The notes: generated by a model not told the origin, from the sequence alone. Shown: positions 22,153-56,081, counted from the stretch's first letter. The stretch is 64,000 bases of DNA from Candidatus Tenderia sp. (GCA_031416075.1 JANOSY010000091.1:1-64000); one strand, 5' to 3'. Made by a program: numbers and translations.

Positions 22153-22522
22153 TGTTAATTCTTCCATGGTTAATGGTGATTGAAAGCGACGCAGCGCCGC
22201 ATCAGCCCGCTATAGTAACAGCCCCTAAAGTGCGTTGCCGCATACAGCCAAAGGCCGAGGAGTATTATTTGATTATGTAGCAATAGGGTTTATACCTGCC
22301 GTTTGACACACAGATGGATGCATTCGAGGGAAAACCTGAAATCGACGAGGATTTATCTTGAAAATCGAGGATTGCTGGATAAAGATGCGGCCAGTCAAAT
22401 AACCAGTGGCTTGGAGATGGTTTTGCCACCTCGAAAAATGAAGCATTTTTCATTTCCAGGGGGTTTTACACACCCTCATTAAACAAGTGCACATAGATAT
22501 ATTGTTGAGGATTATTAATGAC

Positions 22523-22741
22523 ATGAGAGAAACATTAAAAAGAAAGATCATCGAGGTCTGTGATAAAAAGATTGGGAGTAAAGGCGAGGATGTTGGCTTG
22601 TCATTTTATGCGTTTTTCGCAAATAAAAACGATGACCCCGAACTCCTCATCGAGGCAGCAACCTGGTGGATTGTGGAAAAAAAGCTAGATCATTTTGAAA
22701 AAGCAAAAAAAATCAGGGCAATGGTTGAGGCGATACTCTAG
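22523..22741 (+). CDS. Small conserved hypothetical protein (DUF6500-like)
   Basis: GAGG upstream; KIIEVCDKKI..VGLSFYAFF..KN..W..KLDHFEKA pattern. Confidence 0.6.
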   Translation: MRETLKRKIIEVCDKKIGSKGEDVGLSFYAFFANKNDDPELLIEAATWWIVEKKLDHFEKAKKIRAMVEAIL

Positions 22742-22891
22742 ATTTCTCCACTGTCTTATTGAACACAACCGCTGCGCGGTAAAAGCTGGCGTTACGTTGA
22801 AATACGAAAGTAACTATCAGCATAACACTCCAAACCATCTGCGCTACTCTACAACAACCATACACTATTCAATGCCATGCAGAAGACCACA

Positions 22892-23575
22892 TCAATGTCG
22901 TAACGGAATCTGCTGATCAGGCGGGGTTGGACTGTCAGCCTCCGGACCATTACGCTCTACCCATGCCTTGCTATTGCGATCGATCCACTCCTGTTCATTG
23001 TCAGACAGCGGACCGCGCTTGAGGGTGGACTCCCACTCCCACAACGCAGAACGGGCCTTGCGTATAAACGGATCGTTGGGGGGCGACAGATGTATAAAGG
23101 CACGCATGGCACCTAGCGCCCCCTCCAGGTCACCCAGCTGTTCGAGTGATATGGCCAACCCCCAATAGGCGTTGGCCTGATAGGGTTTGAGTTCAATGGC
23201 GCTGTTAAAAAAATCGGCGGAGGCTTTATAGTTCTCTTTGCCAATCAAGGCAAAACCCATATTGACGTAGGCCTCGGGCATTTTCGGGGCCAGCTCAATC
23301 ACCCGATGCAGTGCCTTGATGGCAAAGTCGTACTGCTTGGCATGCAACATGGCAACCGCTTGCTGAAAACGTTCGTCCAGCTCCTTTTCACGATACTGCC
23401 GGGCGTGGCCTTTGGGATCACTGGTGGCATCGGCCATCTTTTCAACCACTGGACGCTGATAGGTAAATTGTGGGCGATTGGCAAAACCGGCCACCATAGC
23501 CACCATCAGGGCCAGTAACAGTAATGTGGTGATCGTGCCGACCCTATCCATGCCTGTATCCACTGCACTGCTCAT
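22892..23575 (-). CDS. Membrane-anchored TPR protein (cytochrome maturation accessory)
   Basis: N-terminal TM, TPR repeats (PEAYVNMG, ANAYWGLA). Last gene of the cytochrome operon. Confidence 0.75.
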   Translation of the reverse strand: MSSAVDTGMDRVGTITTLLLLALMVAMVAGFANRPQFTYQRPVVEKMADATSDPKGHARQYREKELDERFQQAVAMLHAKQYDFAIKALHRVIELAPKMPEAYVNMGFALIGKENYKASADFFNSAIELKPYQANAYWGLAISLEQLGDLEGALGAMRAFIHLSPPNDPFIRKARSALWEWESTLKRGPLSDNEQEWIDRNSKAWVERNGPEADSPTPPDQQIPLRH

Positions 23576-23577
23576 GG

Positions 23578-24426
23578 CTACACCACCCCTTTATGGGCTG
23601 CTTCGCTGAAATAGGGTGTGCCAAAATAGGTGACAAAGGCCAGGCCAAAGATCGCCAGGATAACCAATGCCCCTACTCGTACCGGAATTTTATAACTCAG
23701 CCGGGCATGAATACCGGCACCGATGGAGAGCCACGTCATAAAGGCCGAGGTCTCCAGCGCATCCCACTGCCAGTAACGACCCCAGGCATCTTGTGCCCAG
23801 ACGGCACCGGCAATCAGCATCAAGCTGTCAAAGACCAGCGCCAACATCATAAAGCGCCACGCCATCTGGTCCAGCGCTGCATCACTCATGTGGGCAAACC
23901 AGCGTCCTAGCCCCGGCACGCCTCGTAAAAGTATGATCCCGGCCAACCCTGCCGCCACCAGGCAGAAGGAGAGAAACACTTTGCCAAAACCGACATGGGC
24001 CCAGAGCCAGTTGTTGTTATAGGTGGGGGGGAAGTGGCTGTCACTTGGCTCCAGCATTAACACCCACGACCCCAACAGCCAGATCAGCGGCATCACCACC
24101 ACCGCGCTGGTACGCAGTGCAGGCACCCGCCAGTAGACCAGCGCGAAGATCAGCCCCAAACTAAAGAGCTGGCTGGCCAGCAGTTCATACAGGTTGATAA
24201 AAGGACCGTGGCCCAACCGTTCCCAACGTACCCCCAGTGCCACCGCCAACAGCAGCACACCTGAGATCAGTAGCAGCAGCAGCAACCGCTCGTTACTGCG
24301 TACTGGTGGGCTAATGGCACTGGTTTTTGCCAAGACAACCACGCCACGAAACGCCAGTATGGTTGCCACTGCGTAGGCACTTAGTCCGGCCCAAAGCCAG
24401 GGCAACTCTGTTGCTTCACTCATCAT
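23578..24426 (-). CDS. ccsA: Cytochrome c biogenesis protein CcsA (System II)
   Basis: WWD motif WAQDAWGRYWQWDALE, conserved His (GHGPF, WAHV, IHAR, AAH), multiple TMs. Confidence 0.85.
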   Translation of the reverse strand: MMSEATELPWLWAGLSAYAVATILAFRGVVVLAKTSAISPPVRSNERLLLLLLISGVLLLAVALGVRWERLGHGPFINLYELLASQLFSLGLIFALVYWRVPALRTSAVVVMPLIWLLGSWVLMLEPSDSHFPPTYNNNWLWAHVGFGKVFLSFCLVAAGLAGIILLRGVPGLGRWFAHMSDAALDQMAWRFMMLALVFDSLMLIAGAVWAQDAWGRYWQWDALETSAFMTWLSIGAGIHARLSYKIPVRVGALVILAIFGLAFVTYFGTPYFSEAAHKGVV

Positions 24427-25448
24427 CTGTTGACCACCTTTTCTGTCGCTGGGGAGGCACTGTCCAGCGACGCTACTGATGACAACGTATCAAATTTGCT
24501 CCAGTAGTGCCGCGCCAAACCGACCACACCCAAAATCGCAGCAAAAAAGAGCCACTTCAGGGTCGGGTCATAAAAAATCTTGTAACCAAGCCAGCTATTC
24601 AGCGCTTCGTAACGCAACCGCCCACCTGCCAGCGCCACTTCATCGCCGGGGCGAAGCTCTAACCGCTGCTCACCACTATTCACAATCAAAACCCCGCTGG
24701 CCTGTCGACCGTCCAACACCCAGGCACTCTCTTCCGTATAGCCTGTATCAAGCCGCAGCCAAAATTTGATTTCGTTGCCACCGGGTGGCGTCCAGCTATT
24801 ATCCTGTTTATATTCAAAGAGTGGATAGGCAGGCATATGCACGGAGCCCGTCACGGGCACACCCCCTGTAGGGGTCCAGCTCAATATCGGCGCAAACCCT
24901 TTATTAAAACTGGTGTAAAAACGGTACCCCTTCAGCACCAGAGGAGTATCGTCCCCCACCACCTCCTCAAGCCAACCACCACTGCCATCCGGGATGGCCA
25001 CATGGCTACGGGTCGGGCCACGTTTTAATGCCGAACCATACTCCACCGTGTACGGCCCTTGGACAAACTCCACCGCATCCAGTTCACCCATATGCCATGG
25101 TCCCTGGCGTGGCTCAATCACATTGGCAGGATCGAAGGACTCCCCACTCAACAACTCAATATGGGCTTCGTAATAGGTCAAACGACCCAGCGCTGCCAAC
25201 ACCACAATGGAGAGCAATCCAATATGAAACATCAATAGACCGCCACGACGATTGATACGTGGCTGAACAAGAATGGCCGCAAACAGATTAAGTGACAGCA
25301 GGCCGAGTGGTGCAACCAGCACCCAGACAGAGGTCGTCACGGGGTTGCCATAACTCAGACCCGCACCAACGGCCAGCAACACCATCCCCAGCAACGTCAG
25401 GCGGGTTGATGCCAGCATCCGCCCGCAACGATGTAACCGCCCCATCAT
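24423..25448 (-). CDS. ResB/CcsB-like cytochrome c biogenesis protein
   Basis: Three N-terminal TMs with MFHIGLL His, periplasmic domain, C-terminal YDP+TM. Adjacent to ccsA. Confidence 0.7.
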   Translation of the reverse strand: MMGRLHRCGRMLASTRLTLLGMVLLAVGAGLSYGNPVTTSVWVLVAPLGLLSLNLFAAILVQPRINRRGGLLMFHIGLLSIVVLAALGRLTYYEAHIELLSGESFDPANVIEPRQGPWHMGELDAVEFVQGPYTVEYGSALKRGPTRSHVAIPDGSGGWLEEVVGDDTPLVLKGYRFYTSFNKGFAPILSWTPTGGVPVTGSVHMPAYPLFEYKQDNSWTPPGGNEIKFWLRLDTGYTEESAWVLDGRQASGVLIVNSGEQRLELRPGDEVALAGGRLRYEALNSWLGYKIFYDPTLKWLFFAAILGVVGLARHYWSKFDTLSSVASLDSASPATEKVVNR

Positions 25449-28162
25449 GGCAACAGGTTACATGCCTCTCCGCCCGCCCCCTGACGTGTCATCCAAGGGA
25501 TGTTGCCGTCATTATTATTACCTCCCACCCAGCCATTGCCGGGGGCACCGGCAGAGCCACAACTGGTATGGGTCCACTCGCCACTCTGGCGGAAACGCAC
25601 CACCTTGAGCACCGAACCGTTGTAATACGGCCCCCTGTAATAACGCGCGGTTGTCCTGTTACGAACCTGATTGCCGCCCGTGGGTAGTCCCACCTCTTTA
25701 CCAATGTCATTCAGATTGGCAAGGAAATTTTTGTTTTTCCACCCATGTGGAATCGCAATATGGCAATAGTTGCAACGGAAATTCAATACCTGGCTATCCT
25801 GTGCATGCCCAGTATGAAGGTTATAGTCCGGCACTGCGAGACAGCTTCCCCCGCCACTGCTACGACTGAAACCACTCTTTGAGGTCTGCCCCAGAGGAAT
25901 CGGCCCGGACGGAAACTTTTTACCGTAATAGTTGTAATTATGGCACTTAAAGCAGAGACCTTCCGGGGTGTTCTGCCCGGTCTCATCACTCCACGACCCC
26001 TTCAACAAAAAGTCGTTATTAGAGCCGTGTGGTCCCCACACATTCCCCTGCTCACCACCACGAGGCACCGCTGTACCCGGCTCCGTATCAGAACCGTGGC
26101 AATCGGTGCAGTACATGGTCTGCACACCCACGGCTGCATTAAAGGGCGTCAGCCAGTCATTGGCACTGGCCTGACGGATACCACCACCACCCGGTGCCGG
26201 ATCAGCGGTACGACCGGTCTCTTTCATCACCGGGTGCCAGGCCCGGTGGTTATCCGTGACATAGTCCACACAATTACCAAAGGGGTCCCTGTAACCGGGA
26301 TCAATAATCGGGTTCTGATGTGTGCCGGTATTGATCTTGTTACAGGTGTTTACCTTGTCATCATAAACACCCGTCGGCGAGCCTGACGTCCCTTCACCCA
26401 TATGGTCGTCGGGAGATTGATACTCCATCCCCTGATTGGTGTAATTAAATAGGCTATTGGTACCGGCAGGCGTCCCCCCCGAATGGTTGGTCCCCAACGG
26501 CGGCGGTGAGTCATATCCGTAGTTGGAGTGGCACTTCATACAAATTTGATACTCACGGGTCACATAAGATGAGTTCACTGACGTGCTCGCACCGGGAGAG
26601 TTATCCCCCTTTTTCACATCAAAAATAGTCGGCTCACTGGTAAATTCCGTTGAAGTCCATCCTTTTGGCTCCACCCCCCAGGCACCACGCAACACCCCCG
26701 AAGCAAGATTGGTATGTATCCCCTCAGGGGTGGCGGCGATCTGCGACGCGGTATGGTTATGTGTACCTTCTGTTGCCGGAATTGTAGGATCATCATTAAA
26801 ACTACGATTTTTGATCACACGATGCGGGTTATGGCAATCCGTACACTCAGCGTGACGGTTTGAAAGGTCGCCTTTCCCCAAACGCTGCGGTGACTCCATA
26901 AAGTCTTTACCATTCTGGGCCACACCCGTCGCCGTACCAATCGAGTGGCGCTCCTCCTGAGCCGGCTGGTCATTGCTGGCCATCGGCATATGTATGCGCA
27001 TCGTAGTAAAGTCAGTTTTGATATCAGGCACCTCAAAACCCGGACGATTACTCTGCCCCTGCAAAACACCACCATCCGCTGAATGGCAGGCGTAACAGGT
27101 CTCCTCAATGGCCGCCTTACCACCCTGCTTAACACGCAAGCCGGTCGTACTCAACTGACCATCATCATCAGTCCCCTCGCGCAACAGACGCCGTGCGCCC
27201 TGAACCGTATGTGGATCATGGCAGTTCAAACAGGCCGCCTGCCACACCTGGAAGTTCTTGGGGAACTCACGCAGCTGTGCCGCAGCGTCGGTATAACGCT
27301 CATTTGCTACCGCTGGATTGGCATGTGCCGAATTGGCCCACCCCGACTTCTCATGGCACGCCAGGCAGATAATATCGTTAGCCTGATCAAAGCTACCCTC
27401 AACCGGCTGGGTCTGCTGAAAGCGGTTTACCCGTAAAAACTTAATATTCTCACCATTGCTGCTGCGGACATGAGGATCGTGACAAGAGACACACTCCATC
27501 TGGTTGTTATCCAGCGGAATGGTAGGGCGACTCCCTCCCGCATGACGTTCTCCCAGAAAGGTCTCCACCGTAGGGTCGCGTAATTCACCGTCACGCAGCG
27601 CCTGAGCGCTGTCATAGGTAAATGAGATCGGATGATCATTGGTCAAATCTGTGCCTATACGCCGGGTAAATCCAGTACGATCCCCCACGCCAGTAGGCAT
27701 CGTGCCGTCAGTGCGCGTACCTACCATATTAATAGTAGGATTTTCCTGGCGATTCAATACGTTTACCGCACCAATCGCCAACGTACCATCATGACAGGAG
27801 AGACATAGCTTTGATTTGGTATTGGGCTGACCAATATCCAGGGCATCAATAGAGGTCGAGTTATAAGGTGCGTACGTCTGGCCACTCAGCTTACGGTTCC
27901 AGAGCGGCGCCATCCCCTGCTGAGTCGCCTTATGAGGCGTATGGCAAAAAGCGCAGATCTGCGACTCGTTAGTCGCCTGCACACTCCGGCTATTATCAGT
28001 GGGCAACGCTGGCACCACCATCGCGGAAAAGTTGTGTTTGGTATTGCGGATATCCGAAATAATTTCGGCAGATACGCTATTGACCAGGAGACTATTGGAT
28101 AGTAGCGCTCCGCACAGCAACGCTGCCGTTCTCCACCCGATCAACCCCATCCCCATCTCCAA
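25445..28162 (-). CDS. Undecaheme c-type cytochrome (UetJ-like), secreted
   Basis: 11 CXXCH counted (CAFCH, CLSCH, CVSCH, CLACH, CLNCH, CYACH, CTDCH, CMKCH, CTDCH, CFKCH, CNYCH); signal peptide. Confidence 0.92.
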   Translation of the reverse strand: MEMGMGLIGWRTAALLCGALLSNSLLVNSVSAEIISDIRNTKHNFSAMVVPALPTDNSRSVQATNESQICAFCHTPHKATQQGMAPLWNRKLSGQTYAPYNSTSIDALDIGQPNTKSKLCLSCHDGTLAIGAVNVLNRQENPTINMVGTRTDGTMPTGVGDRTGFTRRIGTDLTNDHPISFTYDSAQALRDGELRDPTVETFLGERHAGGSRPTIPLDNNQMECVSCHDPHVRSSNGENIKFLRVNRFQQTQPVEGSFDQANDIICLACHEKSGWANSAHANPAVANERYTDAAAQLREFPKNFQVWQAACLNCHDPHTVQGARRLLREGTDDDGQLSTTGLRVKQGGKAAIEETCYACHSADGGVLQGQSNRPGFEVPDIKTDFTTMRIHMPMASNDQPAQEERHSIGTATGVAQNGKDFMESPQRLGKGDLSNRHAECTDCHNPHRVIKNRSFNDDPTIPATEGTHNHTASQIAATPEGIHTNLASGVLRGAWGVEPKGWTSTEFTSEPTIFDVKKGDNSPGASTSVNSSYVTREYQICMKCHSNYGYDSPPPLGTNHSGGTPAGTNSLFNYTNQGMEYQSPDDHMGEGTSGSPTGVYDDKVNTCNKINTGTHQNPIIDPGYRDPFGNCVDYVTDNHRAWHPVMKETGRTADPAPGGGGIRQASANDWLTPFNAAVGVQTMYCTDCHGSDTEPGTAVPRGGEQGNVWGPHGSNNDFLLKGSWSDETGQNTPEGLCFKCHNYNYYGKKFPSGPIPLGQTSKSGFSRSSGGGSCLAVPDYNLHTGHAQDSQVLNFRCNYCHIAIPHGWKNKNFLANLNDIGKEVGLPTGGNQVRNRTTARYYRGPYYNGSVLKVVRFRQSGEWTHTSCGSAGAPGNGWVGGNNNDGNIPWMTRQGAGGEACNLLP

Positions 28163-29219
28163 GATATTGAAAAATCACTACACGGCCATTAAAGGTATCC
28201 GCGACATAAATACGATCATTACTGTCCGCCCAAACACCCGCCGGCAAAAAGAACTGCCCTAACTCATACCCGGCCCCGCCAATAGGTAACAATAACTCAC
28301 CATTGCGATTAAATACTAACAAATAATCATAATACGATTCCACAACATAAATATTGCCATGTGAATCAACCGTCACCCCTTTTGGACGTGGCAACTCCCC
28401 CAGATAGAGCCCCCTGCGCCCAAACGTTGAGACCATCTCACCTTCAGGTGAAAAAATCTGAATACGGGAGTTAAGGGTATCCGTCACATAGAGCCTATCG
28501 CCACGCCAATCCAGATAAGTAGGTGCATTAAATTGCCCTGGAGCCTCACCAAACTCACCCAGCGTACCAACCAACACACCCGAGTCATCAAAAACCCGAA
28601 CAAGATTCTCACCACGGTCAGCAACGTAGATACGCCCACGCACAGGGTCCCGCGCCACACCTGCAGGGTGTTTAAGCAGTCCCTCGCCTATCCGCCCAAG
28701 CGGACGACCATCTGACCCCAGGCGCGCCACAAACTTCAGCGCCGCATCTGCCACCAGCAGTTCACCCGCCACGCCCGGCACAACACCAATAGGAAGCACA
28801 AAACGCACCCCCTCACCAGCCCACTCCCACACCTCCAGACGCCCCTTAACCGTATCAAACATAAATACAGCCTGACGACTCACATCGCTGACATACACTC
28901 GGCCATCCGCCGAACCTGTCACCGCCTGGGGACGCTGTAAAACCACCGGATCAGGAGAGTGCCCCGTCAACCCCACCACCCAACGCAAAAACCTGAGTCC
29001 AGCATTGGCGGTCTTTGCACCTGGACGGTAAAAATTCTCCTCACCCGTCAACTGCCCGACATAACCATAACGGGCAACCTCCGGAGGCGCAGGCCACACA
29101 ACCTTCGGAGCACCACTTTCAGTCGAGTCATAACGAAACTGGGCAGGGATCTGCGCGCAGCCTTGCAGCACAAACAGCCACACCAATAGAATCGTGGAAA
29201 AATGGAGGGCCACTTTCAT
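28092..29219 (-). CDS. NHL-repeat beta-propeller lipoprotein
   Basis: LQGC lipobox; repeated P.GV..D....YV.D..N.R.Q.F units. Confidence 0.88.
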   Translation of the reverse strand: MKVALHFSTILLVWLFVLQGCAQIPAQFRYDSTESGAPKVVWPAPPEVARYGYVGQLTGEENFYRPGAKTANAGLRFLRWVVGLTGHSPDPVVLQRPQAVTGSADGRVYVSDVSRQAVFMFDTVKGRLEVWEWAGEGVRFVLPIGVVPGVAGELLVADAALKFVARLGSDGRPLGRIGEGLLKHPAGVARDPVRGRIYVADRGENLVRVFDDSGVLVGTLGEFGEAPGQFNAPTYLDWRGDRLYVTDTLNSRIQIFSPEGEMVSTFGRRGLYLGELPRPKGVTVDSHGNIYVVESYYDYLLVFNRNGELLLPIGGAGYELGQFFLPAGVWADSNDRIYVADTFNGRVVIFQYLGDGDGVDRVENGSVAVRSATIQ

Positions 29220-30367
29220 TAACGGGCAGTCGCAGCCCCGGGAAATCCTTCCGGCACCAACCGTGCCACCTGGATACGTCCATTCAGACTATCCACAACA
29301 TACAAAAAGCGCTCATCCAACCACATATCAGTGATACGCATAAACCGTCCCGTTCCTGCCCCAGAGCCGCCAATAACACCCACCATCCGGCCACGATCAA
29401 AAACCTTAATCTCATTATCCATCAGGTCAGCAACATAGCCACGGTTATTACGATCGACCACAATTGCCGCTGGGAAAATCACCCGTCCCTCCTCAAAGGA
29501 GTAGTTGTAATCCCCTTTAAGCGACAGTACTTGAACACGACGCCCAACACGCGCACCAGCGTAGAAACCATCTGGGCCAATAGACATGCTTGTCATATTG
29601 ATAAACTGCGCCGCCCCCTCGCCACGCCCGCCGTATGTCGCCAGCAACTCACCGTCGCTGCTGAACTGCAAAATGTGGTCAAAATACCCATCTGCCACCA
29701 CCAAATCACCACTCTCCAGCACATTCACTGCAACTGGTTTGGTTAAATTAAAATGGTTACTGAATACCTGTTTCAAACGGCCATCCCGGTCATAGCGCAA
29801 TACACGACCACCATCTGTATCAGTAATATAAAAGCCCTGGTCCGCGGCAACATAAATATCGACCACCTCACCACTCACCGCCGCCCTCAGATCCAAAACA
29901 GAACTAAGACGTCCATCCCGCTGGTCGTAACGTAAAACCGCCTCCAAGCCAGCATCAACAATGTAGATATAATCACCCTGCACGGCAACCGCCACGGGGC
30001 GCTTCAAGCGAAAATCAACCACACCCGTCATGGCATTACCCACATCTCCGCCGGTAATCACATCCCAGTGATAAACCTCCACGGATGCATTCAGGGTTGC
30101 TAAAGGGGAGAAAGCACGATCCGGTAATTCTGAGAAATCTTCGGCAAAGGGCACAAACTGCTGCTCATCCGGGACGGTGGAGGGGAGAACTTTACTACTT
30201 GGCTCTGTCTCTTCAAACAGCTCCACCAGCTCAGCAGCGGAGCGATCAACAACAACAGGCGCGGCAACACGTTGCGGTCCAGCGCAGCCAGCCAGCAGCA
30301 ATGCGCCAGAAAAGAGCGCTACCTTAAACCAACGGTATCGCGTGCAACTGAATGGCATCGGCCACAA
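29219..30367 (-). CDS. NHL-repeat beta-propeller lipoprotein (divergent paralog)
   Basis: LAGC lipobox; RPVAVAV..YIVD, YVADLMDNEIKVFD, YVVDSLNGRIQV. Confidence 0.82.
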   Translation of the reverse strand: MWPMPFSCTRYRWFKVALFSGALLLAGCAGPQRVAAPVVVDRSAAELVELFEETEPSSKVLPSTVPDEQQFVPFAEDFSELPDRAFSPLATLNASVEVYHWDVITGGDVGNAMTGVVDFRLKRPVAVAVQGDYIYIVDAGLEAVLRYDQRDGRLSSVLDLRAAVSGEVVDIYVAADQGFYITDTDGGRVLRYDRDGRLKQVFSNHFNLTKPVAVNVLESGDLVVADGYFDHILQFSSDGELLATYGGRGEGAAQFINMTSMSIGPDGFYAGARVGRRVQVLSLKGDYNYSFEEGRVIFPAAIVVDRNNRGYVADLMDNEIKVFDRGRMVGVIGGSGAGTGRFMRITDMWLDERFLYVVDSLNGRIQVARLVPEGFPGAATAR

Positions 30368-30906
30368 TTCTTGGTTGGGGGAAACGCCACTTTACCGTGA
30401 CAGACTCCACAATAGTTACCCTGCATAATGCCGGACATCGTAACGGGATTACCACCTTTTTGCGGCAGGAATATTCTTGGATGACAATTTTTGCAGGTCA
30501 GCCACTCAGTATGCTGACGATGAGGATAACGAACAAACGGCATCGAGCCGGTATTCTTAAAAATCACGTCAAAGTCGACCGTATGCATCTGATCTTCACC
30601 ATTAAGCCCCTTCCGCGGATCAATCAGCCCATCATCAAGCACTTTAACCCAATCAATCACGCCAGAGTTATCACGGGGAAATCCCTGCATTGCATCAACT
30701 GGCTCCTGCAATACCTTCACCGCATCATTTGATGGATCATGAATTCCGTCAGCATCAACGGCGACTGCCTTACCATCAAGCTGGTAATGTTCACCTGCAT
30801 TCCAAAACTCACCACTCTTCTTTTCCTGCGCATAGCCAATACCGGAGAGCAGCAATACACTTGCCACTACTGCAACCAATCCCTTAAATCGTTTCACACC
30901 AAACAT
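30319..30906 (-). CDS. Triheme c7-type cytochrome
   Basis: YPHRQH; CKNCH, CGVCH, CGRCH; signal peptide. Confidence 0.9.
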   Translation of the reverse strand: MFGVKRFKGLVAVVASVLLLSGIGYAQEKKSGEFWNAGEHYQLDGKAVAVDADGIHDPSNDAVKVLQEPVDAMQGFPRDNSGVIDWVKVLDDGLIDPRKGLNGEDQMHTVDFDVIFKNTGSMPFVRYPHRQHTEWLTCKNCHPRIFLPQKGGNPVTMSGIMQGNYCGVCHGKVAFPPTKNCGRCHSVARDTVGLR

Positions 30907-30930
30907 AAGTCACTATATCTTGAAAAGTTA

Positions 30931-30963
30931 AAAAACCAGCCACCCCTGTAAATAGGGTGGCTG
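30931..30963 (-). terminator. Internal terminator-like hairpin in the cytochrome operon
   Basis: Minus strand CAGCCACCC...GGGTGGCTG followed by GTTTTTT. Confidence 0.55.
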
Positions 30964-31011
30964 CGTAAGACTATACACAAAGAAAACAGACCATGCCATT
31001 AGGACACGGGA

Positions 31012-32556
31012 TTAATTAACCCCGGCAAGACGAAGTGCCCTCTGCAAATTAGAGGTGGCCGCCTGAATCGCCAAAATTGCCATTTTGTAATCACCCTTGG
31101 CTGCGATTGCTTGGCCCTCCGCCTTGATCTGAGCCGCTTTTTTAACCATCTCATCAATCATCTTCAGAGTATTCTCACCTGGCTGCCTCTGTTCAATAGC
31201 CAGCGGCACTAACTCTTCATAGTTCTCTTCACGCGCCAGCTCATACTCATACTCTTCCTTAGGCGTCTCAAAACTGGTGTCATAAACAACTGTCTGGGCA
31301 TGCAACATATCAGTCAGCGCTGCAGTAATCATCGTTTGGGCCTTTTCAAGCAGCTTATTGGCTGACGGATAGTCACCCTTGCTGCCCATAGCCTGCCCTT
31401 CCTTCACCAAACGAGCGTACTCGGCCTCATCCAGCTTACTTTTCAGCGGCCGCTTTACCTTGGCAGCGTGTTCGATATTACGCTTATACGAGCTATCGTA
31501 AGTATGCAGCGTATTGATCAACTCATTATGCTTCGCTTTGTGGTCCACTGCAGCCATATCACTCTCAGTCGTAATCGCACGGGAGGCTGCCGTCATCAAC
31601 CGCAAACTTTCATCCACCTGGGCCATCGCCTCGTCCAGCTTGCCCCCGGCGAGCGTCGAGCCAACTGCGCCAATCTGCTTGCGGGCATCATTAAGCATAA
31701 CAATTGCGTCTGCGTTACCACTCTCTTCTATACGTTTTGCACTGGCAGAACCGGCAACCATCTGTGCGTAACCCAGCTTCTGCTTAACAGCACTTTCCGT
31801 GACCACCACCGCCGCAACAGCACTCCTGGCACTACCACCTTGAGCCGCTGCCGCTGCCTTCACCTTGGTCAAATCATCACCCTTATTCAGGACGTGGATC
31901 TCGCCACCCATATATTTATGGTTACGACACTGATAATAGAGGTTATCAGGGGTATTGGCTCCAGGTACAAAGCTGACATCACCGCGATAAATAAACTGCC
32001 CCTCAACACCCTCTGTATAGGTACCCACTCCCCAACCAGAGGAGGATGTTGTCAGATAAAAGTCGTGCTGAACCCCAGTATCAACAATAAATTTATACTT
32101 TTCGCCACGAATCACCGCCAGCTCTTTACCTTCAACACCATTCACCATAAAACCAACATCCTGGCCATGACCAAACTCAGGGTGAGCGCGAGATTTACGC
32201 TCAGCCATTACCAGAAACGTATTTGGATCAGTGGGAATTTTATGCGCTGTTTTATTGACAGGGACTGGGGCAGCCACTAGCGCTGGCGCGTTCTCTCGGG
32301 CCGGAGCAGAAGCCACAACCTGCGCGGGAAGTGCCTCAACTTTACTTTCCATTGGAGCCGCCTCCACCGCCTTAATCGGTGCCGGTGCCACCACAGTCGC
32401 TTCCTTTACAGGCTGCTCAACCGCTACCGCTGACATACTTTTACCAGACTCAACTCCTGACACACTGTCTGCCTGCTTTTCCGGGGTAGAACCACACCCA
32501 GCCAGCACCGCCACAACCGCCAAAGACAATAGTTTATTTCCTGATTCCATTATCAA
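31012..32556 (-). CDS. Lipoprotein with cupredoxin-like Cu motif and helical C-terminal repeats
   Basis: LAGC lipobox, Ala/Pro linker, QHDFYL ... YYQCRNHKYMGG, then helical repeats. Confidence 0.7.
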   Translation of the reverse strand: MIMESGNKLLSLAVVAVLAGCGSTPEKQADSVSGVESGKSMSAVAVEQPVKEATVVAPAPIKAVEAAPMESKVEALPAQVVASAPARENAPALVAAPVPVNKTAHKIPTDPNTFLVMAERKSRAHPEFGHGQDVGFMVNGVEGKELAVIRGEKYKFIVDTGVQHDFYLTTSSSGWGVGTYTEGVEGQFIYRGDVSFVPGANTPDNLYYQCRNHKYMGGEIHVLNKGDDLTKVKAAAAAQGGSARSAVAAVVVTESAVKQKLGYAQMVAGSASAKRIEESGNADAIVMLNDARKQIGAVGSTLAGGKLDEAMAQVDESLRLMTAASRAITTESDMAAVDHKAKHNELINTLHTYDSSYKRNIEHAAKVKRPLKSKLDEAEYARLVKEGQAMGSKGDYPSANKLLEKAQTMITAALTDMLHAQTVVYDTSFETPKEEYEYELAREENYEELVPLAIEQRQPGENTLKMIDEMVKKAAQIKAEGQAIAAKGDYKMAILAIQAATSNLQRALRLAGVN

Positions 32557-32682
32557 CTCTCCCTACCGCGTCTGTTAACCTCACCAGACCATTGCTACTC
32601 AACAGCCCGGAGCTTTTTCAATCTCTAGTATAAAGAAGGCCGCCCGGAGGCGGCCATCTCATCACTTCAAGAAACTTAACGG

Positions 32683-33423
32683 TTATCTCCAAGGATTCTT
32701 GAGAGTTGCATCACTCAATGGAGGCTGCCAATTAGCAGGCTTTGGCTTAGAGTGGCACTTCTTACATGACTTGGTAGTGATCGGGAAGGATACTTTACCG
32801 TGACATACACCACACTTTTGGCCCAGCAGAATGGCAGACATATTGATCTGATTTGCCCCTTTCTGTGGAATGAAGATCGCTGGATGACAGTTTTGGCACG
32901 CCAACCACTCAGTATGCTGACGATGCGGGAAAACCACATCAGGCACTGAAGCCTTCACTTCACGCACAATATCTAGATCCATGACAAAAGGCTCTTCACT
33001 TGAATCAACCCGATCCCAACGTGGAGCAAGCGTTTTCTCATCAATAGCCTTTACCCAGTCAACATAGTTACCAAACTCCGTCACTGGCAAACCTTTGTAC
33101 GCTTCAATCGGCGCCTGGAGCACAAACGTTCCTTCGTTTTCGGTGTCATGAATACCATCTTCTGGGGGTGGCGCGTTTTTCATCTTATCCACTTTTAAGT
33201 TACGGTTAAAAGTGTTCACGCCAGCCACCTGTGCCACATGCAGCACCTGCTGCTCAGACGGAGCAACCTCATCCACAGGTGTGTAGTCAGGTGCATAACT
33301 CAAAGACTTTGCTGCCACACCACCAGAGTGAATCTCCACATACCCCTGCGAACAAGCAGGGCCAGCAACAGCCAATGTCAACGCAAAGGACAACAACATA
33401 CTTTTGCTACGCAATTTCATCAT
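32683..33423 (-). CDS. Triheme c7-type cytochrome
   Basis: FPHRQH; CQNCH, CGVCH, CKKCH. Paralog of 30319-30906 (DGIHD, DWVK). Confidence 0.9.
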   Translation of the reverse strand: MMKLRSKSMLLSFALTLAVAGPACSQGYVEIHSGGVAAKSLSYAPDYTPVDEVAPSEQQVLHVAQVAGVNTFNRNLKVDKMKNAPPPEDGIHDTENEGTFVLQAPIEAYKGLPVTEFGNYVDWVKAIDEKTLAPRWDRVDSSEEPFVMDLDIVREVKASVPDVVFPHRQHTEWLACQNCHPAIFIPQKGANQINMSAILLGQKCGVCHGKVSFPITTKSCKKCHSKPKPANWQPPLSDATLKNPWR

Positions 33424-33435
33424 TGATTCCCTCCC

Positions 33436-33864
33436 TTATTTCTTCTGTTCTACGGGCTTGTAGGCTGGCGCAATCAAACGCTGAACCGTACTGCCGTGGA
33501 AGTGAGTGGGAGTCCCCGGAATTCCTGAGTGACACATAGCGCAGTTTTCAACCGACCAAGCAATTTCACCATTGTGGCAAGCACCGCAGAACTTACCATC
33601 AATAATTTTTGCCATCGTGATCTTGTTACCGCCGGCTTTAAACTCAAAACCAAGATCAGCATGACAAACCTTGCATCTAAAACGTATACGATGAAACCAG
33701 TGCGGGAACACTACCGGTCGAATTCCGGCCGCATCAGCATAGTTGTTGATAACCACATCTGCATACTCTGCATGTGCCGCCTGTGGCAACAGGAACGCGG
33801 ATACCCACGCTGCCGCCCCAAGCAGAACATACTTCCACTTACTATGCTTGATCTTGCTAGACAT
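33436..33864 (-). CDS. Triheme c7-type cytochrome
   Basis: FPHWFH; CKVCH, CGACH, CAMCH; signal peptide. Confidence 0.9.
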   Translation of the reverse strand: MSSKIKHSKWKYVLLGAAAWVSAFLLPQAAHAEYADVVINNYADAAGIRPVVFPHWFHRIRFRCKVCHADLGFEFKAGGNKITMAKIIDGKFCGACHNGEIAWSVENCAMCHSGIPGTPTHFHGSTVQRLIAPAYKPVEQKK

Positions 33865-33931
33865 AGTGAACGCTCTCCTCGACTAGTATTAAATGAAATT
33901 TGAAACATTATATTATTATGAGCATGTCCGT

Positions 33932-35704
33932 TTAAAAACGGCGCATAACTCTGAAGTATACCAGATCATAGTTGCGCATGTCAGTCTGAGTCAATCGATA
34001 ACTCATGCTGGTATCGAGCTTACCTATGCTGTAAGTCACTCGATTATCCCAGTCTTGTCTGTCAATAGCCCCTTCCGTTGATATTCTGGAGACCATGTAA
34101 TCAGAGACAAATCCCAATCGTGGCACCCCCAGAAGCTGGGAGTGGGAGAAAAAAACCCGCGCTGTTGATGTTGTTGTATCGGTCTCACTCACGCCCCCCA
34201 GCCCATTATCAAACTCACTACCGACATATTGCAACGTCAAATCCCCGGTAATCGAGCTGCGCCGCCCCAAATCCTGACCACGACTCAACTGGACATGCAT
34301 CATCTGCTGCACCTCCGTACCCCCCAACTCCCTCGAATCGGAGAGCGTCAGCAGGGCAAGCGTGTCCCCACCCCACACCCGCTGATTAAATGAGATAGTC
34401 GCAGAATTATCAAAATATCGTCCCGCGTCCTTGGCGTTGATGGCCCCACTGTCCTGATATCGTAACGCCTCATTAACACTGAACCGCACTGACGTGGGAG
34501 ACGTCAACTCTCCCAGCCACCAAGTGCTGCTCAAATTATGGCCCGCCATGGACTGAATATCACCATAGCTGTCATCAGGCTCCGCTACACGATCAAGCCC
34601 CGCGCTTGCATACGCCTGATACATAAACCCTTTTATCTCATACCAGTCGGTCTGATACATGGTGGCAACGTGCTGGCGATGAAACCCCTGCTGCAGATCC
34701 GCCGTCTTCCTGAAGGTTGAGGTTAAGCTGGCATCAAAACGAAGGTTGTTGTTATAAAAATAGAAGGCACCGGCGTTCATAGCTGTCTGCATCTGATCAT
34801 TAGCCGCCACACCCCCTTGAGCACCATCCATGGTCAATACCCGCAACCCGCCACTCACCGACAGCGGCGACGCCTCTGGCCGCCAAAAGAGAAAACTCGA
34901 CGCCTGGGCAATACTGGTTGTGGTCAGTCGTGTATCGCTGCTGCTGGGATCCAGAAAAGAGCGATCGGTATCATAGAGACTGGCCCGACTATCCACCCGC
35001 AAGCCCCGCACCGGGTAGTAGTAATCATTTAACTCAAGGATCGTATTTTTGTTAGTCCGCTCAACCAGTGAGTGTTCGTTGGTCTGATAACTGGCACGGG
35101 CAATAAAATGGTTTTTTGGCATTCGCAAATCGGCCTCAGCACCAATCAGCGTATCGTCATAACCACCGCCCGGCTGGGAGTCCCAGCTTCGCAGATCAAT
35201 ACGTGCCTGGTACCGGCCACCATTGCCGGTAATATAAGATTGGCGCAAACCCAAATAACTGGATGAGTAGTCCTGCCCAACAAAGGTAATAGGGACCTCC
35301 CCCGTGCCCGCACGATCAATGCGACTATCCGAGCGCTGATATTGCAGGCTGAAAGGGGTTTTGCTATCCGGAATAATGGACAGCGTCCAATCCCCTGTCA
35401 CCAGCTGTGCATCAGCAGTTGCTGCCGAAACATCCCCATCACTCTTTGAGGCATCACTCGCAAAACTTAGGGAGAGACGACTGGTCGCCAACCACGGCTC
35501 CCAAAAATAGTTATTTGCATTCAAATTTGCCAACAGCTGATGGCTACTATCTTCACGTCCCCCGCTCTCACTTAGTGAGCGATAGCTGTACCCAATCGCA
35601 CCCGACAGATCAACCGGACCGACCACGGGCGCAGCCACGCCTGCCCCGGCCACGACCAAACAGGCGGCAATAGCAAACCGAGCCGACTTATGACGACTGT
35701 TCAT
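33932..35704 (-). CDS. Large outer-membrane beta-barrel (porin-cytochrome conduit/export pore)
   Basis: Signal peptide, S/Y/G-rich amphipathic strands, C-terminal VYFRVMRRF. Located among cytochrome genes. Confidence 0.7.
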   Translation of the reverse strand: MNSRHKSARFAIAACLVVAGAGVAAPVVGPVDLSGAIGYSYRSLSESGGREDSSHQLLANLNANNYFWEPWLATSRLSLSFASDASKSDGDVSAATADAQLVTGDWTLSIIPDSKTPFSLQYQRSDSRIDRAGTGEVPITFVGQDYSSSYLGLRQSYITGNGGRYQARIDLRSWDSQPGGGYDDTLIGAEADLRMPKNHFIARASYQTNEHSLVERTNKNTILELNDYYYPVRGLRVDSRASLYDTDRSFLDPSSSDTRLTTTSIAQASSFLFWRPEASPLSVSGGLRVLTMDGAQGGVAANDQMQTAMNAGAFYFYNNNLRFDASLTSTFRKTADLQQGFHRQHVATMYQTDWYEIKGFMYQAYASAGLDRVAEPDDSYGDIQSMAGHNLSSTWWLGELTSPTSVRFSVNEALRYQDSGAINAKDAGRYFDNSATISFNQRVWGGDTLALLTLSDSRELGGTEVQQMMHVQLSRGQDLGRRSSITGDLTLQYVGSEFDNGLGGVSETDTTTSTARVFFSHSQLLGVPRLGFVSDYMVSRISTEGAIDRQDWDNRVTYSIGKLDTSMSYRLTQTDMRNYDLVYFRVMRRF

Positions 35705-35735
35705 ACACGCCGCCCAGACACTCCCCAATGCCCAA

Positions 35736-36743
35736 TTATCGTTTTGTTGCCTCAGCATCCACCCAAATCTTTTTTGTTGTTATAGCTTTATCGTAGATTT
35801 CAAGCCGCGCATTAGCGCGCACTGTCTGCAACACCTCCCTCCAGGCATCATCAGACAACTCCCTTTGCAACAATCCAATGGCACGTGCACTCACGCGCTC
35901 AAACGGATTGACAACCTCTGGCTGACGCTCCAGCAACTTAAATAGCGCAAACCCCTGCAACAAGCCAACGGGCGCGGAGACCTCACCAACCTTCAGCATA
36001 TCCACCACCGCCTGCGCCTCCAGCGCCAACATCCCCCGATGTACAAATCCCAGATCACCGCCCTGTTCCGCCGACGCGTCGCTGGAATGGACCAGCGCCA
36101 ACTCCGCAAAATCGGCACCCGCAGCCAATTTCTGCCGCAAACGCAACGCCTCCTGCTCCGCAGCCTTCCAGCTCTCAGTGGAAGCCGAAGGCGAAACCTT
36201 TAATAAAATCAATGCCAAATGCACACGTGCAGGTGTCGTAAACTTATCCAGATGCTGAGCATAATAACCACGCGCATCCCGCTCTGAAGGCCCCTCAACT
36301 GCCCGCACCCGCTTCTCCAGCACCTGCAGCAGCAACCGCTCAGCCACCACACCACGCAACATCTGCTCCAGATGTCGCGCCTGCTGCTCCGTCACCGACT
36401 GCTGACGATAACGGCCAAGTTCATGCTCAACCTGCTTATCAACCGCTGATGGCTCCACTTTCACACCCTGGCGCAACGCCTCATGCCGCAACAATACCCT
36501 GTCAATCAACTCTCCGGCGACCTGATGTCGCAGCTCAGAGAGTCCGGCATCATCAACACGCCCATGATAGAACCGCTGCCGCAAGGCCACACTCACCGCC
36601 GTCTCATATTCCACCTGGGTAATCGACTCATCTGCCACTTTAGCAAAGATGGCCGCTGACGGCTCAGCATTAACTACCCTTCCCCACAGGCACAGAACAA
36701 CAACCCCAACCAGCCAACGACTCACCACATATCGCCCAATCAC
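35736..36743 (-). CDS. Parvulin/PpiC-type (SurA/PrsA-like) chaperone-PPIase
   Basis: SurA-N-like region, GADFAELALVHSSD..AEQGGDLGF, GEVSAPV. Confidence 0.85.
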   Translation of the reverse strand: MIGRYVVSRWLVGVVVLCLWGRVVNAEPSAAIFAKVADESITQVEYETAVSVALRQRFYHGRVDDAGLSELRHQVAGELIDRVLLRHEALRQGVKVEPSAVDKQVEHELGRYRQQSVTEQQARHLEQMLRGVVAERLLLQVLEKRVRAVEGPSERDARGYYAQHLDKFTTPARVHLALILLKVSPSASTESWKAAEQEALRLRQKLAAGADFAELALVHSSDASAEQGGDLGFVHRGMLALEAQAVVDMLKVGEVSAPVGLLQGFALFKLLERQPEVVNPFERVSARAIGLLQRELSDDAWREVLQTVRANARLEIYDKAITTKKIWVDAEATKR

Positions 36744-37555
36744 TTGTTATGACAGGTCAGACAGACCTGACTACCGGCAGGGTCAATACGCAAAAAGGTT
36801 GGGTTATAGTCCACATGGGGATCGTGGCAAGAGGCGCACTCCACATAAGGTTGAGGCTCACCCACAAAACCACCCACTGTCGCCGTGCGGGCATACAACT
36901 TCATGTCTGTACGCTCAAAACTGGCCGTACCGCCCGCTGTATTTACCCACCAGTTACGACTCACCCCTGAAATCTCCGATGAGGCTGGATGGAAGTCTTT
37001 ATCGTAACCAGGGCCCGCAGGGTTTGAGAGTGCATACCCACCGCCCGCATACTGGATTCCAACAGGGTGGTCATTGGTCAGATCCTTACCTAAATTAGTC
37101 ACCACTGTTGGTGAACCGATACGCCCGCCCACCGCTGCCGCCTGACCGCTCCACAATCCACGGGAAAACCCAGGCACATCACGCCCCGAACCCGGCTCAT
37201 TCAACACCGAATCCATCGCCTGAGTACCGTCATGGCACGACAAACAAGCCAACGACACAGACCCCACCGGCTCCACCCCCGCATCAAGCGTTGTTGTCCC
37301 CATCTGGTCATAGGTAGCAAAACCACGGGGATCGATATTACGATTCCACAACGGCGCATCTGCCGCACCATCACCACCATGGGGGGTATGGCAAAAAACA
37401 CAAACCTCACGAGTACCATCAAAGGTACTCGCAGCATTTAAACCGGTAGCACCCAAATTATGTTTGCTGTTGAAAACCCCGGCCTGGGTGCCAGCAGTGA
37501 TCAAAACCAGCAGCCCTCCCGCCAGGACCGCCATCTGTCGGCGATTAATTATCAT
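36740..37555 (-). CDS. Tetraheme c-type cytochrome, OmcE-like (UetA-like)
   Basis: SKHNL, CVFCHTPH, PLWNR, CLSCHDG, DLTNDHPV, CASCHDPH, FLR, CLTCHNK. GGAG RBS before TTG/ATG at 37558/37555. Confidence 0.88.
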   Translation of the reverse strand: MIINRRQMAVLAGGLLVLITAGTQAGVFNSKHNLGATGLNAASTFDGTREVCVFCHTPHGGDGAADAPLWNRNIDPRGFATYDQMGTTTLDAGVEPVGSVSLACLSCHDGTQAMDSVLNEPGSGRDVPGFSRGLWSGQAAAVGGRIGSPTVVTNLGKDLTNDHPVGIQYAGGGYALSNPAGPGYDKDFHPASSEISGVSRNWWVNTAGGTASFERTDMKLYARTATVGGFVGEPQPYVECASCHDPHVDYNPTFLRIDPAGSQVCLTCHNK

Positions 37556-37634
37556 CAACGCACTTCTCCACGTATTACGGTTTTCTAACATGCCCTTAAC
37601 GATACTGTCAAACAACAGCGCTATTTATTCACTA

Positions 37635-37668
37635 CAAAAAAAACGGGCACCCAAAGGCACCCGTTTTT
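37635..37668 (-). terminator. Intrinsic terminator downstream of the porin
   Basis: Minus strand ACGGGTGCC-TTTG-GGTGCCCGT followed by a T-run. Confidence 0.6.
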
Positions 37669-37690
37669 ATTCATCAAGCTTCTACCGCTA

Positions 37691-38761
37691 TTACATAGAA
37701 GAAAACTTCATGTTGATACCTACAGCTACAGCTGAGGCCGCACCGCCATTTACACCAGCCGCACCGACACCGCTGACCAAGTCGTAAGAGTCGGAATTGT
37801 CACTATCGATCTTGCTATAAATGCCATAAACCTCAGTCTTGTCAGACAGTGCTTTATTAACACCTACCGCAAAGAACATGGCGCCAGTGTCAGAACTATT
37901 GCCCACATCGCCTTTCTGACCAATGGCCAGATTTGCAGTCATGCCGTTACCCAGGCCATGGCTACCGCTAACATAGACATTGGACTGGTCATTGCTATTG
38001 CCACCCATGTCAACATTTTCATACACAAAACCTACTTTAGTTGCCGCATTCAGCGCGTAACCAAGACCCAGCTTAACTGCGGTTGTGTCATCAAATTTGG
38101 AACCTGCCATCACAGCAGAGCCTTCATTCATCTGCTGATAGGCAAGGCTGGCATCCAACGGCCCTTGCTTGTACATACCTGCCAAACTGATAGCCCCCTG
38201 TTTACGGGCAACCGTTGCTGATGTTGTGATGGTATCGGCTAGATTATCATCCACGTAATCGGTCACAATCGCCGCCGCCACTGAAAAACCACTCATGTCT
38301 GGTGAAAGATAGGCCAAGACGTTTTTAGAACGGGCATCTTGATTAGAATCAATCACAGAGTTGTAGTCACCGTGGGTATCGACAAATGGGTCCAGGCTAC
38401 CGGTAGCCATTTTGTACGGGGTATCGTGCGTTCCCAGTACTACAGTACCAAAGTTACCACCCAAACCAACAAAGGTGTTACGCACGCCCAAAGTGCTGCT
38501 TCCATCGGTATAGTCAACACTGCGCTCAATCTGCCACATGGCCTTCATGCCACCACCCAGATCTTCAGACCCTTTAAATCCCAGACGTGAGGCATGACTG
38601 GTGATGCTCAGCTTGCTGTCTTCCTTAGCTGGGTTTGGATCATCATTGCTGATGAGACCTGCTGACAGACGGGCCTTACCGTATACTTCAACGCCAGCCT
38701 GTGCCGCCATAGGAGCGGCCAATATTCCCGCTACCGCCAAAGCTACAATTTTTTTCTGCAT
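37691..38761 (-). CDS. Gram-negative general porin
   Basis: MQKKIVALAVA signal, VEVYG, SRLGFKGSEDLGGG, RNTFVGL, YLSPDMSGFS. Confidence 0.9.
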   Translation of the reverse strand: MQKKIVALAVAGILAAPMAAQAGVEVYGKARLSAGLISNDDPNPAKEDSKLSITSHASRLGFKGSEDLGGGMKAMWQIERSVDYTDGSSTLGVRNTFVGLGGNFGTVVLGTHDTPYKMATGSLDPFVDTHGDYNSVIDSNQDARSKNVLAYLSPDMSGFSVAAAIVTDYVDDNLADTITTSATVARKQGAISLAGMYKQGPLDASLAYQQMNEGSAVMAGSKFDDTTAVKLGLGYALNAATKVGFVYENVDMGGNSNDQSNVYVSGSHGLGNGMTANLAIGQKGDVGNSSDTGAMFFAVGVNKALSDKTEVYGIYSKIDSDNSDSYDLVSGVGAAGVNGGAASAVAVGINMKFSSM

Positions 38762-46191: not shown

Positions 46192-46270
46192 GCCCAGATC
46201 CCTGAATCTACTATTGATAGTGTGTTGTGCAGTGTACCCGAAAGCGTTGCCCGACCAGAACCGCATAACG

Positions 46271-46300
46271 AAAAAACCCCGCATCAAGCGGGGTCTGTTT
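46271..46300 (-). terminator. Intrinsic terminator between the TraF-like paralogs
   Basis: ACCCCGC/GCGGGGT stem with T6 tail on the minus strand. Confidence 0.6.
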
Positions 46301-46317
46301 ACACCATCAAGCCATTA

Positions 46318-47607: not shown

Positions 47608-47690
47608 GAATATAGTTACCTGATTGATAGCCGTGTCCAGACACATGTACCGGGCTATCGGCACCCGGTAGAGCGGCCTTTAAATCGCCA

Positions 47691-56032: not shown

Positions 56033-56052
56033 CAGGCAATACTGTTTATAAC

Positions 56053-56081
56053 AAACAAAACAGGGGCCCCAAGGCCCCTGT
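56053..56081 (-). terminator. Terminator-like hairpin after the major subunit gene
   Basis: ACAGGGGCC/GGCCCCTGT stem followed by TTTGTTTG on the minus strand. Confidence 0.6.

Follow-up and report, generated by a model that had tools for sequence, protein, structure and literature searches.

The uet cluster and its OmcE-family cytochrome

We analysed a stretch of 64,000 nucleotides from Candidatus Tenderia sp. (GCA_031416075.1, JANOSY010000091.1:1-64000; the whole stretch is called the window here), the minus strand of which carries a multihaem cytochrome gene cluster at positions 22892-37615. ORF calling gave 13 intact, co-oriented open reading frames (ORFs) that abut or overlap save for three short spacers, and the translations hold 24 CxxCH motifs over five cytochromes (4+3+3+3+11). 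Gene content and order identify the region as a complete copy of the uet (undecahaem electron transfer) cluster, already named and published. In Ca. Tenderia electrophaga the order is uetABCDEFGHIJ-ccsAB-nrfG, then BatD/B/A (Eddie et al. 2022, bioRxiv 10.1101/2022.05.06.490989 / mSphere), and the window genes equal the first 13 of the Figure 2 legend of that paper, gene for gene. A first-pass annotation, made by a model from the DNA alone, had listed 13 co-oriented genes with 24 haems, named a match to the uet cluster of Ca. T. electrophaga and of some Gallionellaceae, and taken the host for a gammaproteobacterium. The ORF calls and CxxCH counts bear out the first point, and the shared order of the 13 genes the second; uet genes have been reported in six Gallionella genomes (PMC10734462), in agreement with the mention of Gallionellaceae. 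The host assignment is reasonable, since the nearest named record among the best 80 loci compared below is a Ca. Tenderia sp. metagenome-assembled genome (MAG) with a 79% identical UetA. We favour, with moderate confidence, the view that in proteobacteria this cluster corresponds to the OmcE cytochrome-nanowire genes known from Geobacter and Desulfuromonas, because one of its proteins shows strong homology to OmcE and its accessory set has a parallel in the literature.

The protein in question is UetA, the tetrahaem product of the first gene, which can be assigned to the OmcE family with all eight haem ligands kept. A phmmer search with UetA against all chains of the Protein Data Bank (PDB) matched 7tfs_A at E = 3.8e-25 and 9yuq_N at E = 7.5e-25, and the next match was at E = 2.5. 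Both alignments fall into two stretches, over the N- and C-terminal parts. 7TFS is the OmcE filament of G. sulfurreducens, and 9YUQ is the OmcE bundle of D. soudanensis (DSOUD_2954). In the alignments, the UetA motifs KH, CxxCH-TPH, CxxCH, NDH, CxxCH-xxH and C-terminal CxxCH stand opposite the same motifs in OmcE. Across 27 UetA-family sequences (49-86% identical to UetA), the four CxxCH never vary, nor do H52, H79, H183 and H267; H209, the sole further histidine, does. Four CxxCH and four histidines likewise make up the conserved core described for OmcE homologues (Petersen et al. 2025, bioRxiv 10.1101/2025.10.22.684050). In the OmcE filament, which has a helical rise of 34 Å (PMC12954529), the adjacent subunit supplies the histidine that completes one haem (PMC9473688, PMC12954529), and we infer that the N-terminal His52 is the histidine donated in UetA. 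The OmcE relatives characterised so far are extracellular (Petersen et al. 2025; PMC9473688). The UetA family is large, with at least 7187 proteins at E <= 0.001 among 8000 candidates scored. Thus, regarding the OmcE-type filament proposed by the first-pass annotation, membership of the OmcE family is supported by the PDB matches and the invariant ligands, and polymerisation itself is a prediction. We found no paper equating Uet with OmcE in the literature searched, in which one review names both in unrelated places. The text of Petersen et al. 2025 contains neither Uet nor Tenderia. The explicit UetA-OmcE assignment, made at the level of sequence, appears to be added to the literature by the present analysis.

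The accessory genes were compared with those of the omcE clusters. Beside OmcE itself, minimal omcE clusters are reported to encode a large beta-barrel, a pair of multihaem cytochromes and a pair of beta-propeller lipoproteins, and to adjoin resB/ccsB; OmcE homologues with a nearby porin are reported in Pseudomonadota, Nitrospirota and other phyla (Petersen et al. 2025). Judged by the published gene lists, the uet and omcE clusters share, besides the homologous tetrahaem with its four CxxCH and four distal histidines, further multihaem cytochromes, two beta-propeller lipoproteins, a large barrel and adjacent resB/ccsB genes. The uet cluster adds a prolyl isomerase, three trihaems, a cupredoxin lipoprotein and an undecahaem cytochrome with an OmcE-like N-terminus, and no glycosylation genes were seen in it. 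The hosts also differ: omcE belongs to anaerobic metal reducers, uet to autotrophs of aerobic or microaerobic habit, a lineage with links to electron uptake. A filament of UetA, set beside the solved OmcE filaments, is a prediction. The first-pass annotation had paired Geobacter filament loci with prolyl isomerase, propeller and barrel genes. For omcE this holds for the propeller lipoproteins and the barrel (Petersen et al. 2025); for the isomerase the precedent is OmcZ, the wire of which reportedly requires a prolyl isomerase for expression in a heterologous host, and this need makes a plausible precedent for UetB.

The features of the locus are listed in Table 1, with domains named by Pfam and NCBIfam profile searches of the window proteins. 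The true uetA start is probably M21 at 37555, because most homologues are about 271 aa long and begin at M21 in the alignment; from M21, UetA carries a Sec signal peptide ending ...TQA/GV. The true starts of uetH and uetJ probably lie a few codons downstream of those listed, because the listed starts overlap the preceding genes. A strong terminator-like hairpin upstream of uetA indicates that a separate transcription unit begins with this gene. A general Gram-negative porin gene (Porin_4, 124.9 bits; 37691-38761, minus strand) is located immediately upstream of uetA, and, as the hairpin stands between the two, it is probably outside the cluster. The hairpins after uetE and uetF are weaker, and the former is possibly an attenuator or an mRNA-stabilising element. 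The tetratricopeptide repeat (TPR) protein encoded by the last gene is presumed to be a maturation helper.

Table 1. Genes and hairpins of the uet locus, in window positions
Feature	Positions	Strand	Description
uetA	36740..37615	-	tetrahaem c-type cytochrome, OmcE family, candidate filament subunit; 4 CxxCH
uetB	35736..36743	-	periplasmic SurA/PrsA-like parvulin prolyl isomerase; PF00639 64.5 bits, SurA_N_3 39.9 bits
uetC	33932..35758	-	608-aa outer-membrane beta-barrel, 28 strands (AlphaFold2)
uetD	33436..33864	-	periplasmic c7-type trihaem; TIGR04257 69.3 bits, PF14522 58.3 bits; 3 CxxCH
uetE	32683..33423	-	c7-type trihaem with N-terminal extension; TIGR04257 62.4 bits; 3 CxxCH
uetF	31012..32556	-	514-aa lipoprotein (LAGC), cupredoxin-like domain; PF25489 27.6 bits, residues 110-223
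uetG	30319..30906	-	c7-type trihaem; TIGR04257 66.8 bits; 3 CxxCH
uetH	29219..30367	-	NHL/6-bladed beta-propeller lipoprotein (LAGC); PF17170 37.8 bits, NHL 25.3 bits
uetI	28092..29219	-	NHL beta-propeller lipoprotein (LQGC); PF01436 NHL 83.4 bits
uetJ	25445..28162	-	undecahaem cytochrome; 11 CxxCH
ResB/CcsB-like, short	24423..25448	-	System II cytochrome c maturation; PF05140 31.8 bits
CcsA/ResC-type haem-handling membrane protein	23578..24426	-	System II; Cytochrom_C_asm/CcsB; PF01578 67.6 bits
Membrane-anchored TPR protein	22892..23575	-	NrfG/CcmH-TPR-like; TPR_2 49.4 bits; weak TPR_CcmH_CycH 19.6 bits
Terminator-like hairpin, gap between upstream porin gene and uetA	37639..37668	-	13-pair stem, then T-run
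GC-rich hairpin, uetE-uetF spacer	32638..32655	-	7 G-C pairs; consensus match only
Hairpin, uetF-uetG spacer	30937..30963	-	10-pair stem, then T-run; consensus match only

UetJ, an undecahaem cytochrome with an OmcE-like N-terminus

We then compared UetJ with OmcE and UetA. UetJ residues 24-233 match 7tfs_A at E = 1.8e-21 in the PDB search, and BLASTP aligns UetA 16-291 with UetJ 10-272 at E = 2e-25. The mature proteins (UetA from residue 46, UetJ from residue 36) align end to end, including the four CxxCH and the four histidines. UetJ 36-272 thus reads as a second complete OmcE-like tetrahaem module, followed by a 630-aa extension with seven haems. A reading of UetJ as several OmcE repeats fused in series was set aside, since the likeness to OmcE is confined to the N-terminal module: hhalign of the UetA profile with UetJ 273-905 gave only one stretch of paired CxxCH (33 columns, probability 71%). 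A near-invariant 'ISDIRNTKHN' arm opens the mature protein across 33 aligned UetJ N-termini, and those of the 33 sequences that reach that far have an extra histidine, H280 ('SAHAN'), after haem 4.

These features recall a requirement discussed for OmcE. An OmcE wire is said to need an OmcE-like 'stopper' with one extra histidine, and such stoppers are usually encoded in the same cluster, although none was found in the omcE cluster of D. soudanensis (Petersen et al. 2025). By position and motif, UetJ fits this description, and we tentatively propose that it may be an in-cluster end-piece, a cap or an anchor, of an OmcE-type wire, a role that we hold to be possible rather than probable. With a full OmcE module in its first 240 mature residues, including the N-terminal histidine arm, UetJ would be able to plug into a UetA subunit, whereas H280 and the seven haems directly after haem 4 suggest that this face of UetJ could not accept another subunit. 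Such an end-piece could be the distal tip that touches a mineral or electrode, or the base, running through the UetC barrel and passing electrons to the periplasmic trihaems. A complex predicted for UetA(46-291) and UetJ(31-300) from alignments made for this analysis scored 0.55, against 0.00 for the best of three controls, with contact agreement between runs of at least 86% and partner pLDDT of at least 77. The mark set for such scores is reached by 116 of 157 solved complexes and by 2 of 215 mismatched pairs, and 18 of the 157, together with both mismatches, reach it at a score of 0.60 or less. The model lends weak support to a UetA-UetJ pairing, and the score may reflect likeness only, as OmcE-OmcE contacts have already been solved.

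Three of the 61 loci described below (L040, L066 and L073) have UetI-ResB-CcsA without UetJ in between, from which we had first read that UetJ is dispensable. We discarded this reading: the genomes of two of them (L040 and L073) have UetJ-like genes elsewhere, which makes the point weak. A second, smaller OmcE-like locus was found in the window's own genome, on contig C51 (L003:1432-3266). It encodes a 250-aa cytochrome with five CxxCH, homologous to the UetJ N-terminus (E = 2.3e-13), directly followed by an NHL lipoprotein; a 398-aa ORF with three CxxCH lies upstream on the other strand, and downstream is an apparent EAL-type fragment, as judged by eye. This locus resembles both the 'five-haem OmcE-like' proteins proposed as a new wire family by Petersen et al. 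2025 and the 'secondary cytochrome cluster' described in the Tenderia paper.

Electron carriers, haem maturation and the outer-membrane barrel

UetD, UetE and UetG, with three CxxCH each, all exceed the TIGR04257 cut-off of 40 bits for c7-type trihaems. UetF has the LAGC lipobox, an Ala/Pro/Val-rich linker, the cupredoxin-like domain and a long helical C-terminal domain. Its amicyanin-like copper motif (H164...C210-x2-H213-x2-M216) and lipobox agree with the Cu-motif lipoprotein listed by the first-pass annotation. Since c7-type periplasmic trihaems make up three of the five cytochromes, and the trihaem genes are reported as the most highly expressed of the cluster in Tenderia, one might suppose that the cytochromes all stay in the periplasm, soluble or tethered to a membrane, and store or relay electrons, for instance in the redox chemistry of Fe(II), sulfur or nitrogen, with the barrel serving solute uptake and no extracellular transfer. 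The extracellular location of UetA and UetJ, as given by the authors of the cluster, is moreover a prediction of localisation tools (Eddie et al. 2022). That prediction nevertheless points away from a periplasmic store, as do the extracellular OmcE relatives characterised so far. In addition, the barrel gene is fixed between the prolyl isomerase and trihaem genes in 51 of the 61 loci, the 28-strand plug-less barrel is far larger than solute porins, and a separate general porin unit lies just upstream. We therefore regard a purely periplasmic role as very improbable.

The cluster also carries haem maturation genes. The ResB-like protein passes the PF05140 cut-off (24.6 bits), but only over profile positions 150-262 of 486, and it can be regarded as a short, divergent ResB; the corresponding gene is named ccsA in the legend of the Tenderia paper. 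CcsA exceeds the PF01578 cut-off of 29.9 bits and scores 102.5 bits with TIGR03144, below the equivalog cut-off of 187.6; the NCBIfam equivalog cut-offs are unreached for this System II pair. In the genome (3.49 Mb, 95 contigs), CcmE is present outside the cluster, which indicates that System I is present too. The sole ResB match in the genome is the in-cluster gene, and the cluster thus brings its own haem lyase, the only one of System II in the genome. The genome also encodes a RuBisCO large subunit.

The 608-aa UetC matched no Pfam or NCBIfam family. Its AlphaFold2 model, based on 43 homologous sequences (mean pLDDT 89.2), has 28 long antiparallel strands, no plug and a C-terminal Phe. The first-pass annotation had taken the ORF, given there as ~590 or 608 aa, for a beta-barrel and had set in advance a fold other than a barrel as counting against its proposal; the model is a barrel. 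In Foldseek searches of the PDB the best match is MtrB (6r2q_B; TMq 0.45, E = 3.3e-08, identity 8%, 28 strands against 26). Ushers and TonB receptors reach a TMq of at most 0.30, LptD 0.35 and usher chains at most 0.27, and the ESM Atlas gave nothing beyond Pseudomonadota clusters of outer-membrane proteins that are unnamed or PEP-CTERM-associated.

MtrB being the sheath of a static conduit, its match to UetC brings up a different architecture, in which UetJ and/or UetA are fixed in UetC as MtrA is in MtrB, no polymer forms, and the NHL proteins and the prolyl isomerase merely stabilise or assemble the complex. The model drawn by Eddie et al. 2022 is of this kind, and UetJ matches the MtrC/MtrF domain II/IV of Pfam (39 bits, cut-off 30). 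MtrCAB/MtoAB and the uet system have in common multihaem cytochromes, carriers in the periplasm and a large outer-membrane barrel that lacks a plug. However, the predicted surface cytochrome of uet is OmcE-like rather than MtrC-like, the strand number differs, and no MtrA/DmsE-type decahaem was found: with TIGR03508, UetJ scores 48.1 bits and UetA 25.4 bits, far below the cut-off of 192.2. Both characterised members of the UetA family are filaments, UetA retains every ligand of a fold where a neighbour's histidine completes a haem, and two propeller lipoproteins, a large barrel and adjacent resB/ccsB are the set reported around omcE. We thus consider a static porin-cytochrome conduit less likely than a wire, but a serious alternative. 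The statement of the first-pass annotation that this may not be a static Mtr-type conduit is supported by the missing decahaem and weakened by the nearest solved fold of the barrel. The wire and the conduit are also compatible, because a wire could be rooted in the barrel.

Besides the MtrB match of the barrel, several points weigh against a UetA wire. On cathodes, the length-adjusted log2 expression in Ca. T. electrophaga is 9.91 for UetA, 7.98 for UetC, 8.66 for UetJ and 11.50 for UetD (supplement of Eddie et al. 2022). The excess of UetA over barrel mRNA is only about 4-fold, which suits a static conduit and speaks, if at all, mildly against a long polymer. The uetB start overlaps the uetA stop by 4 nt, and no hairpin is present 3' of uetA. 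The AlphaFold2 model of UetA from the 27-row alignment is poor (pLDDT 41.7, pTM 0.30). Filament formation, surface location and electron transfer are, for every Uet protein, predictions. In a rough alignment of 53 UetF-like ORFs with automatic boundaries, the copper ligands H, C, H and M occur in 28, 18, 14 and 13, respectively; with its ligands kept in only a minority, this part of the relay appears to be lineage-specific. Finally, OmcE-similar tetrahaems are widespread, so homology alone is no proof of polymerisation, and only those with barrel and propeller neighbours are treated as wire candidates by Petersen et al. 2025. In the window, the UetC barrel and the NHL lipoproteins UetH and UetI are indeed encoded near UetA.

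Gene neighbourhood, distribution and implications

The window copy is like the Tenderia uet cluster in its 11-haem UetJ, three c7-type trihaems, UetF cupredoxin and two NHL proteins. The barrel has 28 strands in our model and 28 in the prediction of Eddie et al. 2022, and both hosts are gammaproteobacteria with a second, System II maturation set beside System I. In Tenderia, batD-batB-batA adhesion genes follow nrfG, whereas the window lacks them: no vWA or BatD domain was found among the ORFs downstream of the TPR gene. Their place is occupied, after an AT-richer spacer of 0.7 kb (22168-22891; free of any convincing ORF, the longest being 84 aa, plus strand 22487-22741), by minus-strand genes for a dienelactone hydrolase (DLH; 21361-22167) and a bacterial globin (20979-21401). 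Conserved globins are described as a trait of the order in the Tenderia paper. Elsewhere in the window, two tandem paralogues of ~447 aa, each with a TraF_2 (PF13729) domain, are encoded at 44947-47664 on the minus strand. The region 50702-58964 encodes a 1040-aa protein with CarboxypepD_reg-like and SPOR domains, followed by a run of ORFs of unknown family that includes a DUF4402 protein and an FlgT-middle-domain protein; this region may be a surface-structure locus. DNA nearly identical to window positions 28000-37700 is present in runs labelled as freshwater sediment, sediment and drinking-water metagenomes, with at least half of the sampled words found in four runs from two studies; one of these four runs is possibly the source sample. 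This points to a freshwater habitat.

UetC was found in all 17 genomes of the window's own order, and full-length matches in other genera of the family are 46-55% identical. A wider scan, taking one genome per species, yielded uetA relatives in at least 604 of at least 618 matched stretches. We compared the best 80 of these stretches, 61 of which have 9 kb or more of sequence on the downstream side of the uetA homologue, by searching the 10-kb downstream flank with tblastn (E <= 1e-5). Presence among the 61 loci was 57 for B, 51 for C, 58 for D, 58 for E, 54 for F, 58 for G, 54 for H, 55 for I and 48 for J, counts to be read with the cross-hits of trihaem paralogues, the divergence of the barrel down to ~22% identity and a flank that excludes UetJ and the Ccs genes in most loci. 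B, C, D, E and I are colinear in 46 loci; two loci (L055 and L060) have none of B-J, and another (L050) has B only. The best 80 loci are almost all from Pseudomonadota (Gammaproteobacteria, Burkholderiales, Rhodocyclaceae, Thiobacillus, Magnetococcales and Alphaproteobacteria), with one Nitrospirae MAG and none from Desulfuromonadia.

Cultured strains with a uetA homologue and downstream uet-like genes are among these loci (L032, L073, L058 and L035). The complete genome of Noviherbaspirillum sp. ST 5-3 has a uetA-I locus with a UetJ homologue (55% identity) directly downstream, and Aromatoleum toluolicum T is also a carrier of a uetA-I locus. Ramlibacter montanisoli B156 carries a uetA homologue with uet-like genes downstream. 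In Aestuariirhabdus sp. LZHN29, no UetH/I NHL gene was found within 10 kb downstream of the uetA homologue, and a UetJ homologue is encoded ~17 kb away on the opposite strand.

If UetA does form an OmcE-type wire, the cluster could work as follows. All 24 haems would be attached by the ResB-like protein, CcsA and the TPR protein on the periplasmic side. There, the NHL lipoproteins UetH and UetI, together with the parvulin UetB, would hold and deliver the almost structure-free holo-cytochromes, which UetC would let through, or anchor in, the outer membrane. Outside the cell, UetA would polymerise through the OmcE-type contact, with a histidine of one subunit ligating a haem of the next, and UetJ would attach to one end of the polymer by its OmcE-like module. 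The c7-type trihaems UetD, UetE and UetG, and in this lineage also the cupredoxin UetF, would carry electrons across the periplasm. Given RuBisCO in the genome and the growth of Tenderia on cathodes, net electron flow would most likely be inward, from solid donors to oxidases. In function, such an assembly would be analogous to chaperone-usher pili, where a folding helper in the periplasm and a barrel in the outer membrane likewise serve a polymerising subunit completed by an element of its neighbour; this analogy was raised by Petersen et al. 2025, calling for an in-cluster 'stopper'. The two systems are not homologous, and a haem-ligating histidine rather than a donor strand would be exchanged. 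Conductive polymers had already been suggested by the authors of the uet cluster (Eddie et al. 2022).

The window holds a freshwater relative, well preserved, of a cluster already in print. To our knowledge, cytochrome nanowires have been structurally shown only in anaerobic metal reducers and two archaea. If uet is the same machine, it is present in at least 604 matched stretches, at one genome per species, largely from Pseudomonadota, and many of its carriers are aerobic or denitrifying autotrophs and heterotrophs. How nanowires are exported, how they start and end and how they connect to the periplasm are questions raised in the literature (Petersen et al. 2025), and the uet cluster offers candidate parts that the current view of Geobacter lacks, namely a haem lyase of its own, a prolyl isomerase and an OmcE-like end-piece. 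The preprint of Petersen et al. 2025 already reports Pseudomonadota OmcE homologues with nearby porin and propeller genes; new with respect to print are the UetA-OmcE assignment, the OmcE-like module of UetJ with its possible end-piece role and the list of cultured carriers, which make knock-outs and filament preparations practical. If UetJ is truly an end-piece, it would provide the first genetic handle on how a nanowire starts, ends and is wired to the cell, and electron-eating autotrophs would be using nanowires in reverse.

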